Below, piece after piece: positions 1 through 7,904 of a DNA stretch of 7,904 bases. Each line of letters begins with the position of its first letter. The first letter of the stretch is position 1. The DNA lies in IMG/VR virus record IMGVR_UViG_2531839127_000025. One strand, given 5' to 3'. The translations under genes were made by a program, and so were the position numbers. This stretch comes from a virus (Duplodnaviria; Heunggongvirae; Uroviricota; Caudoviricetes). The notes beneath the pieces were generated by a model that was not told the origin of the DNA, made no database searches, and saw only the letters and a list, made by a program, of their open reading frames with translations.

Positions 1-87
1 GTGCTGGATTACATTGACGCGGTGACGGCAATAGATACCAGCACCGCGCCTGATATTATTTGGCCTGTATTCCCTGAGACTGATTAA
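1..87 (+). CDS. Tail-fibre assembly protein (Tfa), C-terminal end only; 5' end lies outside the window
   Basis: Frame 1 from position 1 reads VLDYIDAVTAIDTSTAPDIIWPVFPETD with a TAA stop at 85-87. The DTSTAPDI-WP tail resembles the conserved C-terminus of lambda/e14-type Tfa proteins as I recall them. Position immediately before an invertase fits a tail-fibre/Tfa module. Confidence 0.65.
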   Translation: MLDYIDAVTAIDTSTAPDIIWPVFPETD

Positions 88-316
88 CCTCAATCAGTAT
101 TGGTTCGCCTTTCTCATTAATTGTTAGCTCCATGCCCTGAGGAATTTCTGTCATAGTAAAAAACCAGTTGTCCTCCGGTAATTCAATAGCCCCGGTCACG
201 TCATGAAGACCGGGGATTACTTCAGTCAAAGTAACTGGATTAAACAGGCGCACAATAAACCCTCCATGAAAAAGCATTTGATGATGGTCTGCCGTCGTAC
301 ATCTGGCAGCGGGCAT
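56..316 (-). CDS. Small 86-aa ORF in the silent cassette, downstream of the alternative fibre segment; possible non-canonical fibre chaperone, function unknown
   Basis: Minus-strand ORF with ATG at 316-314 and an in-frame TAA five codons upstream, so it cannot be longer. It converges on and overlaps the + strand Tfa end (56-87), as in convergent Sv-U / U'-S'v cassette layouts. No recognisable Tfa C-terminal motif and no strong Shine-Dalgarno. Confidence 0.35.
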   Translation of the reverse strand: MPAARCTTADHHQMLFHGGFIVRLFNPVTLTEVIPGLHDVTGAIELPEDNWFFTMTEIPQGMELTINEKGEPILIEVNQSQGIQAK

Positions 317-595
317 AAAAGCCGGTATTTGTTACCTGATCATCCACGATCATTGAAACGTGAACATTATTAGGTGTGCTCTCGTAATCCGTTCTTATTC
401 TTTCTGCGATACTGATAAAACGTGAAAGTTTAGGCAGTGCAATTGGGTAAACGACTTTAGCCAGTCCATTATCATTAGATCCACCGGTTCCAAATACTTC
501 TATTGCACCATCTGACCAGCGTACCCATGCACCATTGGCATTAGCTCCTCGCTGAATGACATATCTGGCTTCTCCCAAACCAACGTTTATGAAAA
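240..595 (-). CDS. Alternative (silent-orientation) tail-fibre C-terminal variable segment; start-less, would be fused to the constant fibre N-terminus after inversion
   Basis: Minus-strand frame is open from the crossover site down to a stop at 237-239 (ORF track 240..623; the ATGs at 623-618 lie outside the invertible segment and are probably not used). The frame runs straight through the 26-bp crossover site, encoding ...FINVGLGEA.... Gly/Asn/Ser/Trp-rich composition is typical of fibre tips. Assignment is by architecture, not by recognised homology. Confidence 0.45.
570..595. other. Serine-invertase crossover site (gix/cix/hix-like 26-bp imperfect palindrome)
   Basis: TTCTCCCAAACC-AA-CGTTTATGAAAA: two 12-bp half sites in inverted orientation around a central AA dinucleotide, following the TTnTCnnAAACC..GGTTTnnGAnAA pattern of hix/gix/cix sites. 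Lies 55 bp upstream of the invertase ATG and inside the fibre-segment reading frame. Confidence 0.7.
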
Positions 596-649
596 TGCAG
601 AAATAACGAGCAAATGGCATCATTCCTGCTTTTGTCAGAGGGATCCACT

Positions 650-1243
650 ATGCTTATTGGCTATGTACGCGTGTCAACAAATGACCAGAACACGGAATTG
701 CAGCGTAACGCGCTGGAGTGTGCAGGATGTGAGCTGATTTTTGAGGACAAAATCAGCGGCACGAAGTCCGACAGGCCGGGACTGAAAAAACTGCTCAGGA
801 CATTATCGGAGGGGGATACACTGGTAGTCTGGAAGCTGGACCGGCTGGGGCGTAGTATGCGGCATCTGGTCATTCTGGTTGAGGAGCTGCGCGAACGCGG
901 CATTAATTTTCGCAGCCTGACGGATGCCATTGATACCAGCACGCCGATGGGGCGTTTTTTCTTTCATGTGATGGGTGCCCTGGCTGAAATGGAGCGAGAA
1001 CTCATTGTCGAGCGGACACGCGCAGGACTGGAAGCGGCCAGAGCCAAAGGTCGTATTGGTGGCAGACGACAGAAACTCACCGCGAGTGAGTGGGAGCAGG
1101 CCGGGCGTTTGCTGGCTGCAGGGGAGCCACGTCAACGCGTGGCACTGATTTTTGATATTGGTCTGTCCACGCTCTATAAAAAATTTCCCGCCTCAGTGAC
1201 AAAAAATAAATTGTGTCATCCCTTAGCCAACCGGGACAAATAG
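650..1243 (+). CDS. Serine-recombinase DNA invertase (Pin/Gin/Cin/Hin family)
   Basis: Protein from ATG 650 begins MLIGYVRVSTNDQNTELQRNAL..., with the family's catalytic-serine N-terminus, the GDTLVVWKLDRLGRS and MGRFFFHVMGALAEMERELI(V)ERT blocks, and a C-terminal HTH region (RVALIFDIGLSTLYKK). AGAGGGA Shine-Dalgarno 9-15 nt upstream. The in-frame ATG at 614 has no SD and adds a non-conserved leader. Confidence 0.92.
   Translation: MLIGYVRVSTNDQNTELQRNALECAGCELIFEDKISGTKSDRPGLKKLLRTLSEGDTLVVWKLDRLGRSMRHLVILVEELRERGINFRSLTDAIDTSTPMGRFFFHVMGALAEMERELIVERTRAGLEAARAKGRIGGRRQKLTASEWEQAGRLLAAGEPRQRVALIFDIGLSTLYKKFPASVTKNKLCHPLANRDK
1212..1240 (+). promoter_or_regulatory. Candidate late-promoter activator box (imperfect dyad TTGTGTC ... 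GACAAA) upstream of FI
   Basis: Imperfect inverted repeat roughly 60-90 bp upstream of the FI start, overlapping the 3' end of the invertase ORF. P2 late promoters carry a TGT-N12-ACA dyad for Ogr; the spacing here does not match that consensus, so this is tentative. Confidence 0.2.
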
Positions 1244-1302
1244 CCTGACATCTCCGGCACAACTGAAAATACCACTCACCCATTAACCACGGAGTTAAAC
1301 GG

Positions 1303-2493
1303 ATGAGTGACTATCATCACGGCGTGCAGGTGCTGGAGATTAACGACGGCCCCCGCGTCATTTCCACCGTATCCACTGCCATTGTCGGCATGGTCTGCAC
1401 GGCCAGCGATGCGGATGCGGAAACCTTCCCCCTCAATAAACCTGTGCTGATTACCAATGTGCAGAGCGCAATTGCAAAGGCCGGTAAAAAAGGCACGCTG
1501 GCGGCATCGTTGCAGGCCATCGCTGACCAGTCAAAACCGGTCACCGTTGTCGTGCGCGTGGAAGACGGCACCGGCGACGACGAAGAAACGAAACTCGCGC
1601 AGACCGTTTCCAATATCATCGGCACCACCGACGAAAACGGTCAGTACACCGGGCTAAAAGCCCTGCTGGCGGCGGAGTCGGTAACCGGTGTTAAACCGCG
1701 TATTCTCGGTGTGCCGGGGCTGGATACCAAAGAGGTGGCTGTTGCACTGGCATCCGTCTGTCAGAAGCTGCGCGCTTTCGGGTATATCAGCGCATGGGGC
1801 TGTAAAACCATTTCCGAGGTGAAAGCCTACCGCCAGAATTTCAGCCAGCGTGAGCTGATGGTCATCTGGCCGGATTTCCTCGCATGGGATACGGTCACCA
1901 GTACCACCGCCACCGCGTATGCCACCGCCCGTGCGCTGGGTCTGCGTGCCAAAATCGACCAGGAGCAGGGCTGGCATAAAACGCTGTCCAACGTCGGGGT
2001 GAACGGTGTTACCGGCATCAGCGCCTCTGTATTCTGGGATTTGCAGGAGTCCGGCACCGATGCTGACCTGCTTAACGAGTCAGGCGTCACAACGCTGATT
2101 CGCCGTGACGGTTTCCGCTTCTGGGGTAACCGTACCTGCTCTGATGACCCGCTGTTCCTCTTTGAAAACTACCCCCGCACCGCGCAGGTGCTGGCCGACA
2201 CGATGGCTGAGGCGCATATGTGGGCGGTGGACAAGCCTGTCACCGCAACGCTGATTCGCGACATCGTTGACGGCATCAATGCCAAATTCCGTGAGCTGAA
2301 AACAAACGGCTATATCGTGGATGCGACCTGCTGGTTCAGCGAAGAATCCAACGATGCGGAAACCCTCAAGGCCGGAAAACTGTATATCGACTACGACTAT
2401 ACACCGGTACCTCCTCTTGAAAACCTGACCCTGCGCCAGCGTATTACCGATAAATACCTGGCAAATCTGGTCACCTCGGTTAACAGCAATTAA
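1303..2493 (+). CDS. FI: Contractile tail sheath protein (P2 gpFI-like)
   Basis: 396-aa ORF with GGAG Shine-Dalgarno 8 nt upstream. The MSDYHHGVQVLEINDG... N-terminus and overall sequence match my recollection of P2 FI. Followed immediately by the tube gene. Confidence 0.93.
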   Translation: MSDYHHGVQVLEINDGPRVISTVSTAIVGMVCTASDADAETFPLNKPVLITNVQSAIAKAGKKGTLAASLQAIADQSKPVTVVVRVEDGTGDDEETKLAQTVSNIIGTTDENGQYTGLKALLAAESVTGVKPRILGVPGLDTKEVAVALASVCQKLRAFGYISAWGCKTISEVKAYRQNFSQRELMVIWPDFLAWDTVTSTTATAYATARALGLRAKIDQEQGWHKTLSNVGVNGVTGISASVFWDLQESGTDADLLNESGVTTLIRRDGFRFWGNRTCSDDPLFLFENYPRTAQVLADTMAEAHMWAVDKPVTATLIRDIVDGINAKFRELKTNGYIVDATCWFSEESNDAETLKAGKLYIDYDYTPVPPLENLTLRQRITDKYLANLVTSVNSN

Positions 2494-2505
2494 GGAGCCT
2501 GACCG

Positions 2506-3024
2506 ATGGCAATGCCGCGCAAACTCAAGTTAATGAACGTCTTTCTGAACGGCTACAGCTATCAGGGCGTTGCAAAGTCCGTCACGCTGCCAAAACTGAC
2601 CCGTAAGCTCGAAAACTATCGCGGTGCGGGGATGAACGGCAGCGCACCGGTAGACCTCGGCCTTGATGACGATGCGCTGTCAATGGAGTGGTCGCTCGGT
2701 GGCTTCCCGGATTCGGTTATCTGGGAGCTTTACGCCGCAACCGGTGTGGATGCCGTGCCGATTCGTTTTGCAGGCTCTTACCAGCGCGACGATACCGGCG
2801 AAACGGTGGCCGTCGAAGTGGTCATGCGTGGACGTCAGAAAGAAATCGACACCGGCGAGGGTAAACAGGGAGAAGACACCGAGTCGAAAATCTCCGTGGT
2901 CTGCACCTATTTCCGGCTGACGATGGACGGCAAGGAGCTGGTCGAAATCGACACCATCAACATGATTGAGAAGGTGAACGGCGTCGACCGGCTGGAGCAA
3001 CACCGCCGAAATATCGGCCTGTGA
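2506..3024 (+). CDS. FII: Tail tube protein (P2 gpFII-like)
   Basis: 172-aa ORF with AAGGAG Shine-Dalgarno overlapping the FI stop. Size and position (sheath-tube pair) are typical of Myoviridae; sequence resembles P2 FII. Confidence 0.92.
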   Translation: MAMPRKLKLMNVFLNGYSYQGVAKSVTLPKLTRKLENYRGAGMNGSAPVDLGLDDDALSMEWSLGGFPDSVIWELYAATGVDAVPIRFAGSYQRDDTGETVAVEVVMRGRQKEIDTGEGKQGEDTESKISVVCTYFRLTMDGKELVEIDTINMIEKVNGVDRLEQHRRNIGL

Positions 3025-3030
3025 TTTTCA

Positions 3031-3051
3031 TCCGGTCAGCCTGGCTGACCG
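3031..3051 (+). other. Perfect 9-bp stem / 3-nt loop hairpin between FII and E
   Basis: CCGGTCAGC-CTG-GCTGACCGG lies between the FII stop (3022-3024) and the E Shine-Dalgarno. No U-tract follows, so it is not a classical intrinsic terminator. Confidence 0.5.
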
Positions 3052-3080
3052 GTTAACCCTGATTCAGAAGTGAGAAAACC

Positions 3081-3356
3081 ATGAACAAAGAAAATGTGAT
3101 TACCCTGGACAATCCGGTCAAGCGTGGTGAGCAGGTTATCGAACAGGTCACGCTGATGAAACCCAATGCCGGGACGCTGCGCGGTGTCAGTCTGGCTGCG
3201 GTCGCAAACTCCGAAGTCGATGCACTGATTAAGGTGCTGCCGCGCATGACGGCACCGATGCTGACCGAGCAGGAAGTCGCCGCGCTGGAACTGCCTGACC
3301 TTGTGGCGCTGGCCGGTAAGGTGGTCGGTTTTTTGTCGCCGAACTCGGTGCAGTAA
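3081..3356 (+). CDS. E: Tail assembly chaperone (P2 gpE-like), zero-frame product
   Basis: 91-aa ORF ending ...VVGFLSPNSVQ*. Sits directly upstream of the tape-measure gene, the conserved chaperone position. Contains the slippery heptamer near its 3' end. Confidence 0.9.
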   Translation: MNKENVITLDNPVKRGEQVIEQVTLMKPNAGTLRGVSLAAVANSEVDALIKVLPRMTAPMLTEQEVAALELPDLVALAGKVVGFLSPNSVQ

Positions 3357-3508
3357 CGTTCCCGAAAAATCTGTCGGTCGATGAGCTGATGGCGGATGTG
3401 GCAGTGATATTTCACTGGCCGCCATCAGAACTGTATCCCATGAGTCTGACCGAACTCATCACATGGCGCGAAAAGGCGCTCCGGCGAAGCGGAAACACGA
3501 ATGAGTAA
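3081..3508 (+). CDS. E': Tail assembly chaperone frameshift product (P2 gpE+E'-like), made by a programmed -1 shift at 3329-3335
   Basis: Slippery heptamer T TTT TTG at 3329-3335 in X XXY YYZ phasing relative to the E frame. The -1 frame is open from there to a TAA at 3506-3508, encoding ...VAELGAVTFPKNLSVDELMADVAVIFHWPPSELYPMSLTELITWREKALRRSGNTNE, and overlaps the T start codon at 3501. Confidence 0.8.
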
Positions 3509-5948
3509 CAATGTAAAATTACAGGTATTGCTCAGGGCTGTTGACCAGGCATCCCGCCCGTTTAAATCCATCCGCACAGCGAGCAAATCGCTGTCGGGGG
3601 ATATCCGGGAAACACAAAAATCACTGCGCGAGCTGAACGGTCACGCATCCCGTATTGAGGGATTTCGCAAGACCAGCGCACAGCTCGCCGGGACTGGTCA
3701 TGCACTTGAAAAGGCACGGCAGGAGGCCGAAGCCCTTGCCACACAGTTTAAAAACACTGAACGTCCGACCCGTGCTCAGGCGAAAGTGCTGGAATCCGCA
3801 AAGCGTGCGGCGGAGGACTTACAGGCGAAATATAACCGCCTGACGGATTCCGTTAAGCGCCAGCAGCGGGAACTGGCCGCTGTGGGAATTAATACCCGCA
3901 ATCTTGCACATGATGAGCAGGGACTGAAAAACCGTATCAGTGAAACCACCGCACAGCTTAACCGGCAGCGTGACGCGCTGGCGCGTGTCAGTGCGCAACA
4001 GGCAAAACTTAATGCAGTAAAACAGCGTTATCAGGCCGGAAAGGAACTGGCCGGAAATATGGCCTCGGTGGGCGCTGCCGGTGTGGGGATTGCGGCGGCG
4101 GGAACGATGGCCGGAGTTAAGTTGCTGATGCCCGGTTATGAGTTTGCGCAGAAAAACTCAGAATTGCAGGCCGTGCTCGGAGTGGCAAAAGACTCCGCCG
4201 AAATGACCGCACTACGCAAACAGGCGCGCCAGCTCGGCGACAATACCGCCGCCTCGGCGGATGATGCGGCCGGTGCACAGATAATCATCGCGAAAGCGGG
4301 TGGGGATGTTGATGCCATTCAGGCGGCAACGCCGGTCACGCTGAATATGGCGCTGGCGAACCGCCGCACGATGGAAGAAAACGCCGCCCTGCTGATGGGG
4401 ATGAAATCCGCCTTTCAGCTTTCAAACGATAAGGTCGCTCATATCGGGGATGTTCTCTCCATGACGATGAACAAAACCGCCGCCGATTTTGACGGCATGA
4501 GTGATGCGCTGACCTATGCCGCACCTGTGGCAAAAAATGCCGGTGTCAGCATTGAAGAAACCGCCGCAATGGTCGGGGCGCTGCATGATGCAAAAATCAC
4601 AGGCTCAATGGCGGGGACGGGAAGCCGTGCCGTGTTAAGCCGCCTGCAGGCACCGACGGGAAAAGCATGGGATGCACTCAAAGAGCTTGGAGTGAAAACC
4701 TCAGACAGCAAAGGAAACACCCGGCCAATATTTACCATTCTGAAAGAAATGCAGGCCAGTTTTGAGAAAAACCGGCTCGGTACTGCCCAGCAGGCTGAAT
4801 ACATGAAAACTATTTTCGGGGAGGAGGCCAGCTCAGCCGCCGCCGTGCTGATGACTGCCGCCTCAACCGGAAAGCTGGACAAACTGACCGCTGCGTTTAA
4901 AGCCTCAGACGGGAAGACCGCCGAGCTGGTAAATATCATGCAGGATAACCTCGGCGGTGACTTTAAGGAGTTTCAGTCCGCTTATGAGGCGGTGGGGACA
5001 GACCTGTTTGACCAGCAGGAAGGCGCACTGCGTAAGCTCACTCAGACGGCCACAAAGTATGTGTTAAAACTCGACGGCTGGATCCAGAAAAACAAATCAC
5101 TGGCGTCAACCATCGGCCTCATTGTCGGTGGCGCGCTGGCGCTTATTGGCATCATCGGTGCCATTGGTCTTGTAGCCTGGCCGGTTATCACCGGCATCAA
5201 TGCCATTATCGCGGCAGCAGGCGCAATGGGGGCAATCTTCATGACGGTTGGCAGTGCTGTTATGACGGCCATCGGGGCGATTAGCTGGCCGGTTGTGGCC
5301 GTGGTGGCCGCCATTGTCTCCGGGGCGTTGCTTATCCGTAAATACTGGGAGCCTGTCAGCGCATTCTTTGGCGGTGTGGTTGAAGGGCTGAAAACGGCAT
5401 TTGCGCCGGTGGGGGAACTTTTCACGCCACTTAAGCCGGTGTTTGACTGGCTGGGCGAAAAGTTACAGGCCGCGTGGCAGTGGTTTACAAACCTGATTGC
5501 CCCGGTTAAAGCCACACAGGACACCATGAACCGTTGCCGTGACACGGGCGTCATGTTCGGGCAGGCGCTGGCTGACGCGCTGATGCTGCCGCTTAATGCG
5601 TTCAACAAACTGCGCAGCGGTATTGACTGGGTACTGGAAAAACTCGGTGTTATCAACAAAGAGTCAGACACACTTGACCAGACCGCCGCAAGGACTCATG
5701 CCGCCACGTATGGCACCGGTGGTTACATTCCGGCGACCAGCTCTTATGCAGGCTATCAGGCTTATCAGCCGGTCACGGCACCGGCTGGCCGCTCTTATGT
5801 GGACCAGAGTAAAAACGAATATCACATCAGCCTGACGGGTGGTACTGCGCCGGGGACACAGCTTGACCGCCAGTTACAGGATGCGCTCGAAAAATACGAG
5901 CGGGATAAACGTGCGCGCGCCCGTGCCAGCATGATGCATGACGGTTAA
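3501..5948 (+). CDS. T: Tail tape measure protein (P2 gpT-like)
   Basis: 815-aa ORF directly after the E/E' chaperone pair. N-terminal region is rich in charged, coiled-coil-like residues; a long Gly/Ala/Ile hydrophobic segment is encoded around 5098-5340. Confidence 0.93.
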   Translation: MSNNVKLQVLLRAVDQASRPFKSIRTASKSLSGDIRETQKSLRELNGHASRIEGFRKTSAQLAGTGHALEKARQEAEALATQFKNTERPTRAQAKVLESAKRAAEDLQAKYNRLTDSVKRQQRELAAVGINTRNLAHDEQGLKNRISETTAQLNRQRDALARVSAQQAKLNAVKQRYQAGKELAGNMASVGAAGVGIAAAGTMAGVKLLMPGYEFAQKNSELQAVLGVAKDSAEMTALRKQARQLGDNTAASADDAAGAQIIIAKAGGDVDAIQAATPVTLNMALANRRTMEENAALLMGMKSAFQLSNDKVAHIGDVLSMTMNKTAADFDGMSDALTYAAPVAKNAGVSIEETAAMVGALHDAKITGSMAGTGSRAVLSRLQAPTGKAWDALKELGVKTSDSKGNTRPIFTILKEMQASFEKNRLGTAQQAEYMKTIFGEEASSAAAVLMTAASTGKLDKLTAAFKASDGKTAELVNIMQDNLGGDFKEFQSAYEAVGTDLFDQQEGALRKLTQTATKYVLKLDGWIQKNKSLASTIGLIVGGALALIGIIGAIGLVAWPVITGINAIIAAAGAMGAIFMTVGSAVMTAIGAISWPVVAVVAAIVSGALLIRKYWEPVSAFFGGVVEGLKTAFAPVGELFTPLKPVFDWLGEKLQAAWQWFTNLIAPVKATQDTMNRCRDTGVMFGQALADALMLPLNAFNKLRSGIDWVLEKLGVINKESDTLDQTAARTHAATYGTGGYIPATSSYAGYQAYQPVTAPAGRSYVDQSKNEYHISLTGGTAPGTQLDRQLQDALEKYERDKRARARASMMHDG

Positions 5949-5962
5949 GGAGGTGACGAAAA

Positions 5963-6442
5963 ATGATGCTCGCGTTAGGTATGTTTGTTTTTATGCGCCA
6001 GACGCTGCCACACCAGACCATGCAGCGTGAATCAGATTATCGCTGGCCGTCAAATTCCCGTATCGGCAAACGGGATGCCTTTCAGTTTCTCGGTGTGGGT
6101 GAGGAAAACATCACGCTTGCCGGTGTGCTTTATCCTGAACTGACCGGCGGAAAGCTGACGATGACCACGCTCAGACTGATGGCAGAGGAAGGCCGGGCGT
6201 GGCCGTTGCTGGATGGCACCGGCATGATTTACGGCATGTATGTCATCAGCAGGGTGAGTGAAACAGGGAGTATTTTCTTTGCAGACGGCACACCCCGGAA
6301 AATTGATTTTACGCTGTCGCTCACCCGCGTTGATGAATCACTGGCCGCGCTTTATGGCGATATCGGTAAACAGGCGGAATCGCTCATCGGTAAGGCTTGC
6401 AGTATGGCGACTAAATTCACGGGTATGACGGGGGCGGGATAA
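5963..6442 (+). CDS. U: Tail protein U (P2 gpU-like)
   Basis: 159-aa ORF with AAGGAGGTG Shine-Dalgarno upstream. Its stop overlaps the D start (TAATG). Conserved position after the tape measure. Confidence 0.88.
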   Translation: MMLALGMFVFMRQTLPHQTMQRESDYRWPSNSRIGKRDAFQFLGVGEENITLAGVLYPELTGGKLTMTTLRLMAEEGRAWPLLDGTGMIYGMYVISRVSETGSIFFADGTPRKIDFTLSLTRVDESLAALYGDIGKQAESLIGKACSMATKFTGMTGAG

Positions 6443-7605
6443 TGCTGGATGCACTGACATTTGATGCAGGCAGTACGCTGACGCCGGATTACATGCTGAT
6501 GCTCGACAGCAGGGATATTACCGGCAATATCAGCGACCGTCTGATGAGTATGACCCTGACGGATAACCGGGGTTTTGAGGCTGACCAGCTTGATATTGAA
6601 CTGAACGATGCCGACGGGCAGGTCGGGCTGCCGGTTCGTGGCGCTGTCCTGACGGTGTATATCGGCTGGAAAGGTTTTGCCCTGGTATGCAAAGGGAAAT
6701 TCACCGTTGATGAGGTAGAACACCGGGGCGCGCCGGATGTGGTCACCATCCGCGCCCGGAGTGCAGATTTTCGCGGGACGCTCAATTCCCGCCGTGAAGG
6801 CTCCTGGCATGACACCACGCTCGGTGCGATTGTTGAGGCGATAGCCTCCCGTAACAGGCTGGAAGCCAGTGTCGCGCCGTCACTGGCCGGAATTAAAATC
6901 CCGCACATCGACCAGTCGCAGGAGTCTGATGCAAAATTCCTGACCCGCCTTGCTGAACGCAACGGCGGTGAGGTGTCGGTAAAAATGGGAAAACTGTTGT
7001 TTCTCAAAGCGGGGCAGGGGGTGACGGCCAGCGGTAAAAAAATCCCGCAGGTCACCATCACCCGCAGCGACGGCGACCGTCATCATTTTGCGATTGCTGA
7101 TCGTGGAGCCTACACCGGCGTAACGGCAAAGTGGTTACACACCAAAGACCCGAAGCCGCAAAAGCAGAAGGTAAAACTGAAACGCAAAAAGAAAGAGAAA
7201 CACCTGCGCGCACTGGAGCACCCGAAAGCAAAACCGGTCACGCAGAAGAAAGCGCCAAAAGTACCGGAAGCGCGCGAAGGTGAATACATGGCCGGTGAAG
7301 CTGACAACGTTTTTGCCCTGACCACGGTATATGCCACAAAAGCGCAGGCTATGCGCGCCGCTCAGGCGAAGTGGGACAAACTGCAACGGGGCGTTGCGGA
7401 GTTCTCCATCAGCCTGGCTACTGGTCGGGCAGATATTTACACGGAAACGCCGGTCAAAGTGTCAGGCTTTAAGCGCGTCATAGACGAGCAGGACTGGACA
7501 ATCACTAAGGTGACACATTTTCTGAATAATAGCGGCTTCACGACGTCCCTGGAGCTTGAGGTCAGGCTTTCTGATGTGGAGTACGAAACAGAAGATGATG
7601 AGTGA
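6442..7605 (+). CDS. D: Tail protein D (P2 gpD-like)
   Basis: 387-aa ORF translationally coupled to U. Contains a Lys-rich basic segment (KDPKPQKQKVKLKRKKKEKHLRALEHPKAKP...) encoded at about 7140-7270. Last gene of the F operon in P2 gene order. Confidence 0.88.
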   Translation: MLDALTFDAGSTLTPDYMLMLDSRDITGNISDRLMSMTLTDNRGFEADQLDIELNDADGQVGLPVRGAVLTVYIGWKGFALVCKGKFTVDEVEHRGAPDVVTIRARSADFRGTLNSRREGSWHDTTLGAIVEAIASRNRLEASVAPSLAGIKIPHIDQSQESDAKFLTRLAERNGGEVSVKMGKLLFLKAGQGVTASGKKIPQVTITRSDGDRHHFAIADRGAYTGVTAKWLHTKDPKPQKQKVKLKRKKKEKHLRALEHPKAKPVTQKKAPKVPEAREGEYMAGEADNVFALTTVYATKAQAMRAAQAKWDKLQRGVAEFSISLATGRADIYTETPVKVSGFKRVIDEQDWTITKVTHFLNNSGFTTSLELEVRLSDVEYETEDDE

Positions 7606-7609
7606 TGTT

Positions 7610-7685
7610 TTATTTTATCTATTTGTTTTGTAAGGATAAATTAACTAAAATGGCACCATCAACAAAACCGGAAGAGGTGCTCGCG
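7610..7685 (+). promoter_or_regulatory. AT-rich intergenic region likely holding the ogr promoter and ribosome-binding site
   Basis: AT-rich stretch between the D stop and the ogr ATG, with TTGTTT/TTGTAA and TAAATT/TAAAAT hexamers and a GGAAGAGGTG purine tract 6-15 nt before the ATG at 7686. Exact -35/-10 not assignable by eye. Confidence 0.3.
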
Positions 7686-7904
7686 ATGTTTCATTGTCCT
7701 TTATGCCAGCATGCCGCACATGCGCGTACAAGCCGCTATATCACTGACACGACAAAAGAGCGTTATCACCAGTGTCAGAACGTGAATTGCAGCGCCACGT
7801 TCATCACTTATGAGTCGGTACAGCGATATATCGTGAAGCCGGGAGAAGTCCACGCCGTAAGGCCGCACCCGTTGCCATCAGGGCAGCAAATTATGTGGAT
7901 GTAA
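7686..7904 (+). CDS. ogr: Late-gene transcriptional activator Ogr (Cys4 zinc-finger, Ogr/Delta family)
   Basis: 72-aa product MFHCPLCQHAAHARTSRYITDTTKERYHQCQNVNCSATF... with a CxxC-N22-CxxxxC zinc-finger arrangement, matching Ogr as I recall it. Follows gene D as in P2. The stop codon is the last three bases of the window. Confidence 0.9.
   Translation: MFHCPLCQHAAHARTSRYITDTTKERYHQCQNVNCSATFITYESVQRYIVKPGEVHAVRPHPLPSGQQIMWM

Follow-up and report, generated by a model that had tools for sequence, protein, structure and literature searches.

Gene content and layout of the locus

The stretch of DNA analysed here (the window; 7,904 nucleotides of a Caudoviricetes virus, IMG/VR record IMGVR_UViG_2531839127_000025) corresponds to the late region of a P2-type prophage and comprises the end of a tail-fibre assembly (tfa) gene, two minus-strand open reading frames (ORFs; 56-253/316 and 240-623), a serine recombinase gene, FI, FII, E/E', T, U, D and ogr (Table 1). 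The complete 201-aa tfa gene (tfa201) is visible in two sister assemblies, at positions 856-1461 of L009 and 8743-9348 of L005. It converges with orf65, one of the two minus-strand ORFs, and the 3' ends of the two genes overlap by 32 nt at 56-87, which complicates dN/dS estimates for the last orf65 codons. No Rfam family was found in the window. A promoter scan of positions 1-1400 gave nothing beyond shuffle expectation and revealed no promoter-like site for the minus strand, and the terminator-like hits of the 1-1400 scan fell within the invertase coding region and are probably due to chance.

Table 1. Features between the left end of the window and the tail sheath gene.
Feature	Positions	Strand	Remarks
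Tail-fibre assembly gene, 3' end, ON orientation (equivalent of P2 G and Mu U; 201 aa in full)	1-87	+	Pfam Caudo_TAP, E = 2.5e-6, profile positions 107-131 of 131
orf65, 65-aa gene accompanying the silent tip (in the place of Mu U')	56-253	-	Mechanical ORF extends to 316
tipA, alternative C-terminal (putative receptor-binding) part of H, 109 codons, silent orientation	240-569	-	In-frame fusion to H in L005 and L007
Right 26-bp crossover site, TTCTCCCAAACC-AA-CGTTTATGAAAA	570-595		Single copy in the window; inverted partner within H
Spacer from crossover site to invertase start	596-649	+	Supplies the start codon (620-623) of the annotated 126/127-aa ORF
Serine DNA invertase, Gin/Pin/Hin/Cin family, 197 aa	650-1243	+	Resolvase and HTH_7 domains
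F-operon promoter region, P2-derived	1206-1302	+	Maps to the P2 activator-binding site (~1206-1234) and transcription start (~1277-1279)
FI, tail sheath gene, right edge of the slot	1303-2493	+	396 aa, 98-99% identical to P2-type sheaths

The recombinase matched the Pfam families Resolvase (E = 3e-52) and HTH_7 (E = 3e-12), the structure of Gin (PDB 3uj3, E = 7e-95) and phrog_125, annotated as 'DNA invertase', and over its first 180 residues it shares 81% identity with Mu Gin and 89% with a PinE-like protein. The catalytic-serine motif YVRVSTNDQ is present, which places the protein among the small serine recombinases. Third-position conservation over codons 15-60 of four invertase genes gave no clear footprint of a Fis enhancer; Fis sites are too degenerate for a pattern test. 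The last ~18 codons (1189-1243) have no counterpart in PinE or Gin and cross the pF activator-site region of P2 (Table 1), and the invertase stop codon is separated from FI by only 59 nt without a terminator-like site.

Homology to P2 (97%) starts at window position 1223, equivalent to position 17572 of the P2 record and thus within the annotated pF activator-binding site. According to the same record, fun(Z) is encoded on the minus strand of P2 between G and the F promoter. Since P2 homology begins within the pF site and fun(Z) lies between G and that promoter, the invertase occupies the fun(Z) position. Further downstream, a GGTTTTTTG run at ~3327-3336 matches the annotated -1 frameshift site for E/E' of P2 (P2 record position 19685), so that the E+E' frameshift appears to be conserved. 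Gene callers differed on ogr, which was called either as a 99-aa ORF with a GTG start at the D stop codon (7602) or as a 72-aa ORF starting at ~7686.

Base composition and codon usage

The original prediction held that the DNA from about 90 to 600 is more AT-rich than the genes from 1303 onward, and this was borne out by a GC content of 0.434 for 90-600 (0.436 for 88-649) relative to 0.561 for the F operon (1303-7605). Among all 562-bp intervals within 1303-7605, the minimum GC content was 0.528 (mean 0.562, sd 0.015), which places 88-649 ~8 sd under the F-operon mean. In a sliding plot, GC remained at 0.42-0.45 from ~1 to ~700 and then at 0.50-0.61 up to ~7400. A second low-GC zone at 7400-7904 (0.44-0.46; 0.462 over 7606-7904) spans ogr and the DNA past D, and is a separate matter of the ogr gene and the prophage end.

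The deviation extended to synonymous positions. GC at third codon positions (GC3) was 0.33 for tipA and 0.43 for orf65, compared to 0.64 ± 0.05 for F-operon blocks of equal size, and a synonymous-codon score trained on the F operon gave z = -8.4 and z = -5.6, respectively, with every F-operon block scoring higher. The null blocks for this score lay within the training set, which slightly flatters the null, but the gap was far larger. Deviation of the invertase gene was mild (GC 0.535; GC3 0.57, z = -1.8; codon score z = -3.3). Because this gene is not AT-rich, the step in composition lies at ~650-700 and not at 1243; comparison of GC and codon usage between 1-1243 and 1303-7605, the check proposed at the outset, thus found strongly deviant DNA up to ~650-700 but no AT-richness in 650-1243.

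Crossover sites and orientation of the segment

The site at 570-595 (TTCTCCCAAACCAACGTTTATGAAAA) occurs once in the window, where shuffled sequences predicted 0 copies. It is identical to the site beside pinE in strain ECOR29 (L003) and matches Mu gix at 17/26 positions. An inverted-repeat search found no second inverted site within the window; the left partner, TTCTCCCAAACC-AA-GGTATGCGAGAA, was found in the sister loci, inverted and inside the fibre gene H, at L009 258-283 and L005 8235-8260, and reads TTCTCCCAAACCAAGGTATGCGAGAA on the opposite strand. The two sites have identical inner half-sites and an asymmetric AA core in common, so that with the left site taken from the sister loci there are two inverted 26-bp sites with a matching core. 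In a further P2-type locus, TW01221 (L002), the left site was overlooked by the repeat finder because of mismatches and was recovered by fuzzy search. Homology to other invertase-bearing P2-like phages begins abruptly at 568/569.

Sister assemblies were identified via the exact invertase protein and belong to the accession series APYM-APYR, at least two of them being named E. coli P0304777.x. Five loci (L005, L007, L009, L010 and L011) represent the same prophage beside pflB/focA and are over 99.9% identical to the window. Both L009 and L011 are in the orientation of the window, while L005 and L007 carry window positions 1-586 as the reverse complement. Comparison of L005 with L009 places the breakpoint of the inversion at 569-586, and the sequences flanking the two sites on the inside trade places exactly between both forms. 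Contigs L009-L011 start in or beside the segment, which is the usual behaviour of assemblers with a population of mixed orientation. Both orientations of the segment thus occur among these assemblies, and from their difference we infer inversion. As neither the left site nor the constant part of H falls within the window, the switch was reconstructed from the sister assemblies.

In L005, H encodes 389 aa and tipA is read in frame past the constant part, the same DNA being inverted in L005 and L007. The constant part ends ...KDVAGLLAYLGLGE and continues ARYVIQRGANANG..., which is the minus-strand translation of window positions 569 to 240, and orf65 follows directly. In L009, which has the orientation of the window, the constant part is joined to a Collar-domain tip of 190 aa (tipB), and after it comes the 201-aa Tfa that ends at window positions 1-87. 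The junction in H is thus ...LLAYLGLGE followed by ARYVIQ... (tipA) in L005 and by GSALPVG... (Collar tip) in L009. Constant H is therefore found fused to either of two tips, each with its helper gene (orf65 or tfa201), and the two pairs are convergent. Because H is fused to tipA in the flipped sister assembly, the AT-rich stretch is identified as a silent alternative, tipA plus orf65.

Selection on tipA and orf65 and their predicted products

The dN/dS ratio was 0.07-0.14 for tipA and 0.12-0.23 for orf65, and these low values indicate that both are maintained genes. In contrast, the leader at 570-620 had a dN/dS of 0.73. RefSeq-style annotation places a 126/127-aa 'hypothetical protein' across tipA, the first 17 residues of which are the translated crossover site and spacer and are variable or missing in homologues; conservation among tipA homologues begins exactly past GLGE. 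Given this N-terminus and its dN/dS, the 126/127-aa ORF is a gene-calling artefact on a promoter-less fragment. In turn, orf65 was called by PGAP as a 198-nt gene in L002, L003 and L093.

These ratios also bear on whether the segment might be a fossil, that is, a once-invertible cassette that became frozen and is decaying, with its AT-richness resulting from relaxed selection. The prophage could be defective, and two relatives (L086 and L088, see below) retain convergent tfa/tip cassettes without an invertase beside FI. Nevertheless, such decay is highly improbable here, as both ORFs are under purifying selection, the invertase is intact and has its catalytic motif, neither crossover site is damaged and their AA cores match, and both orientations are present among near-identical sister assemblies.

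The tipA product matched phrog_2557 (E = 6e-15) as well as tail-fibre PHROGs, and aligned to the Pfam family Gp53-like_C (PF21882) with E = 0.0033 and 18.4 bits, below the cut-off of 24.9. An AlphaFold2 (AF2) model built from 15 homologues was all-beta and of medium quality (pLDDT 64), and its top four Foldseek matches in the PDB were C-terminal domains of R2/R1 pyocin fibres and AP22 gp53 (E = 5e-3 to 4e-2, TM-score 0.41-0.49). These lines of evidence are concordant, if not conclusive, and suggest that tipA encodes a receptor-binding knob.

The product of orf65 matched phrog_5400 (E = 3e-25), the function of which is unannotated, and its homologues formed 77 clusters from Enterobacterales, nearly all of 46-90 aa and mostly of 65 aa. 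A Pfam search returned no domain and no Caudo_TAP (PF02413) match for orf65, and the protein stops short of the conserved C-terminal ...VDTSTAPDIEWP motif of that family. Residues 6-59 aligned to the N-terminal part of small Tfa proteins in a sensible but weak manner (hhalign probability 14%, E = 0.0019), which makes orf65 as a truncated Tfa a lead rather than a result. In the case of the AF2 model (pLDDT 75, pTM 0.36), Foldseek searches of the PDB found no fold match, only chance-level WW-domain-like hits. By its gene position and by analogy with Mu, P1 and e14, orf65 would serve as a helper or chaperone.

Contents of the G-FI slot in related phages

The original prediction had described the G-FI interval as a hot-spot for cargo in P2 (Z/fun), which agrees with the P2 record, with our survey of relatives and with published work. 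The Z/fun hotspot has been described as hyper-variable: fibre and assembly genes are swapped there, and a DNA invertase is 'often' present with adjacent genes inverted (bioRxiv 10.1101/2024.10.15.618418). Briefly, 80 IMG/VR loci encoding a sheath protein at least 86% identical were collected, 76 of which had at least 1.5 kb upstream of FI. An invertase was present in the slot in 16 of these 76 relatives, always at -653 to -63 from FI and accompanied by varied convergent tfa/tip cassettes; 13 had a nearly empty slot (123-353 nt), and the other 47 held 1.1-4.4 kb between the tfa gene and FI, with a GC content mostly of 0.32-0.41 and up to 0.45. Alignment of the slot across relatives thus recovered more than one module. 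As composition deviates and slot contents vary, neither a composition shared with the F operon nor one identical module in all related phages, which together would have spoken against the original prediction, was found.

Most slot cargo in relatives was more AT-rich than either 88-649 (0.436) or the invertase gene (0.535). None of the 80 IMG/VR relatives carried the tipA/orf65 pair, and tblastn found no fun(Z) homologue in these loci. Two 186-like members of the group of 47, L086 and L088, had reversed or convergent tfa/tip cassettes with no invertase adjoining FI; these could be fossil segments or could be flipped in trans by another Pin-type invertase. In L026, a 95%-identical fragment of constant H lies reversed at -1675 to -1139 from FI, immediately upstream of the invertase, and could reflect an inversion that used another pair of sites, or else an artefact of assembly on this short contig (6.8 kb). 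An extra ORF of ~250 aa without a Pfam match was observed between an S-like gene and the baseplate gene V in L004 (4049-4789) and L008 (4034-4789), but not in L005 or L007, and its position is probably another variable slot.

The prediction also held that an inversion module fills this slot in place of Z/fun. An inversion system is indeed present, but the AT-rich DNA belongs to the fibre genes, and it is only the invertase that sits in the fun(Z) position. Moron cargo would be a self-contained, non-structural gene that lies between the V-operon terminator and pF and brings its own expression signals; the AT-rich ORFs are instead fibre parts lacking a start codon and promoter of their own, and the invertase stands alone in the slot and is part of the switch. 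True moron or accessory cargo, such as a defence or lysogenic conversion gene comparable to P2 fun(Z) and expressed by itself from the prophage between the fibre genes and FI, would fit the map position, the AT-richness of the stretch, the 'hypothetical protein' labels of both ORFs in RefSeq and the 1.1-4.4 kb of AT-rich cargo that 47/76 relatives do hold. We nonetheless give almost no credence to this explanation, since the ORF at 240-569 becomes the C-terminus of H after inversion, its annotated N-terminus is translated crossover site and spacer with a dN/dS of 0.73, the minus strand has no promoter-like site, the cargo of relatives is mostly far more AT-rich, and tipA resembles phage fibre and structural families.

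Spread and mosaicism of the invertible segment

The cassette at 88-568 was found in 116 of 5,426 complete E. coli genomes (about 2%), annotated either as a phage tail protein plus a hypothetical protein (fused) or as two hypothetical proteins (silent); the two forms of annotation indicate that both orientation states occur in other genomes as well. Four loci illustrate its distribution. In Combat2C1 (L093), a 186-type prophage, window positions 1-595 are 100% identical, while identity is 61% over 596-649, 51-84% along the length of the invertase and 62-70% in the sheath gene; the drop from 100% to 61% occurs at base 596, at the crossover site. In NCTC9064 (L094), also 186-type but with the cassette ON, the whole segment (L009 267-1969) is 99.2% identical and the flanks are 73-86% identical. 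ECOR29 (L003), a Mu/e14-type tail module with pinE, matches 1-595 at 97-100%, including the low-GC tipA/orf65 cassette at 97-98%. In the P2-type locus TW01221 (L002), the backbone is 96-100% identical and the cassette 84-91%. At the left end of the Combat2C1 locus (L093 1-269), just upstream of the baseplate gene V, lies a gene for a TIR-domain protein, probably defence cargo in a different slot.

An identical 197-aa invertase was found beside different cassettes in L004, L006 and L008, and the invertase tracks the P2 backbone while the cassettes vary. Taken together with the identity breaks bounded by the crossover sites, this indicates that the exchanged unit is the invertible segment. Exchange also affects parts of the segment: over 596-649, identity of the spacer is 91% to the e14-type L003 but only 61% to the P2-type L002 and the 186-type L093, and this e14-like spacer marks an additional mosaic junction at about base 650. 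The proposal that cassette and invertase had been acquired horizontally and independently can thus be kept for the segment, which is mosaic and exchanged independently of the invertase, but not for the invertase, which follows the P2 backbone. Acquisition of a low-GC block including the invertase as one module was likewise rejected, as both the composition and the phylogeny of the invertase follow the backbone.

Codon-score deviation was present throughout the segment (z of -5 to -9; tipB, z = -9.1; tfa201, z = -5.0) and did not extend to the constant part of H (z = -1.4). Low GC could, however, be intrinsic to receptor-binding tip domains instead of marking horizontal acquisition, if it arose from constraints on amino acids or structure or because variability is selected for. 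In Mu, the G segment (0.452) is likewise below the baseplate genes (0.523), and all other invertible segments examined, including those of L001-L004, had a GC content of 0.45-0.49 relative to ~0.56 in their flanks. Low GC alone accordingly does not prove foreign origin, and a general property of tip domains could contribute. As the whole explanation we consider it improbable: synonymous third positions deviate most (GC3 0.33), and amino-acid content is no explanation there, the sister cassette in the same segment has a GC content of 0.50-0.52, and segments that are 99-100% identical in phage backbones only 62-86% identical are direct evidence of transfer.

The only loose ends are the tipA/orf65 pair and the sharply site-delimited exchange junctions. 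Two more novel readings, which we regard as unlikely, concern these. In the first, tipA/orf65 would be a distinct minimal tip module, consisting of a pyocin-fibre-like knob of ~109 aa and a 65-aa helper that lacks the canonical C-terminal domain of Tfa. In the second, the 26-bp sites could be portable junctions for swapping whole segments between unrelated phages, either mediated by the invertase or through micro-homology. If the first were true, it would imply a different mechanism of assembly or attachment, or that orf65 is not a chaperone.

A proposed switch in tail-fibre specificity

We conclude that positions 56-595 are very probably the silent half of an invertible tail-fibre segment of the Gin/Pin type, which would govern host range in a P2-like prophage of E. 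coli. The constant 5' part of H lies outside the segment, upstream of the window, and ends at the 26-bp site, which encodes ...LGLGE. The segment of ~1.7 kb holds two convergent cassettes, each consisting of a tip and a helper gene. In the orientation of the window, H continues into the Collar-domain tip and is followed by the 201-aa Tfa, and both would be expressed from the late operon, while tipA and orf65, being reversed and having neither a start codon nor a promoter of their own, would be silent. Recombination of the two inverted sites by the invertase encoded just outside the right site would flip the segment, fusing H to tipA with orf65 next to it and thereby changing receptor specificity. 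The low GC content would reflect membership of a pool of fibre-tip cassettes that pass promiscuously between unrelated phages, in which the whole segment is swapped with breakpoints at the crossover sites and the invertase stays with the P2 backbone. At the level of sequence comparison, the anatomy of the segment, its occurrence in nature in either orientation and the selection acting on both ORFs are well established. The logic of expression, the effect on host range and the dependence on Fis are those of Mu, P1 and e14, and by analogy would hold for this prophage.

Comparison with known invertible segments

A host-range switch of this kind is already known, as are invertases and fibre swapping at this hotspot, and the locus opens no new question. 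In its recombinase, its pair of inverted sites, its two orientations and its convergent pairs of tip and helper genes, it shows the hallmarks of Gin/Pin-type fibre switches. Its value lies in correcting the annotation of two RefSeq 'hypothetical proteins', present in about 2% of complete E. coli genomes, to a silent tip and its helper, and in providing a clean natural case of en-bloc exchange of receptor-binding cassettes among P2-, 186- and Mu/e14-type phages, which is relevant to host-range prediction and to the engineering of tailocins and phages. In the early 1990s, Haggard-Ljungquist and Sandmeier reportedly proposed that P2, Mu, P1 and e14 exchange fibre parts horizontally.

The layout is the same as that of the Mu G segment with Gin (S/U and S'/U') and the P1 C segment with Cin, in which the fibre gene has its constant 5' part outside the segment, a 26-bp site marks the junction of constant and variable parts, two convergent pairs of tip and assembly genes lie inside, and the second site is followed by the invertase just outside. 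The order in Mu is Sc/[Sv-U-U'-Sv']/gin, and GC content of the segment is below that of the flanks in both Mu and this phage. The segment described here is shorter than that of Mu (1.7 kb versus 3 kb), and its site has an AA core and matches gix at the 17/26 positions given above. Relative to both Mu and P1, the orf65 helper is a 65-aa protein without Caudo_TAP, and the host phage is a P2-type myovirus.

The e14 P segment of E. coli K-12 with PinE, and e14/Mu-like tail modules, share an identical right-hand site and an 89%-identical invertase with the window, and the module beside pinE in ECOR29 carries the same tipA/orf65 cassette at 97-98% identity. Their backbone, by contrast, is unrelated, with Mu-like baseplate genes and no P2 F operon, and the window's invertase gene extends further 3' than pinE, into the pF promoter region of P2.

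P2-like (Peduovirus) phages and prophages with an invertase between the fibre genes and FI, such as pro483, S164, the 'P2' prophage of O157:H43 T22 and prophages of EPEC E2348/69, have the same order of H - tfa - tfa' - tip' - invertase - FI. The invertase-FI junction of these invertase carriers is 94% identical to that of the window, although the contents of their cassettes differ; within the phage collection, tipA and orf65 had only a distant counterpart, in S164 (36% and 64% identity, respectively). Databases already list invertase-bearing P2-like phages under this annotation, pro483 being one example, and inversion in P2-like prophages of EPEC has been shown experimentally (PMC4272514). 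Compared to P2 itself, the invertase shares the map position of fun(Z) and replaces that gene exactly up to the pF activator site. Whereas fun(Z) is a free-standing, non-structural and AT-rich gene, the AT-rich DNA of this prophage is structural fibre sequence and the gene that occupies the slot is not AT-rich.
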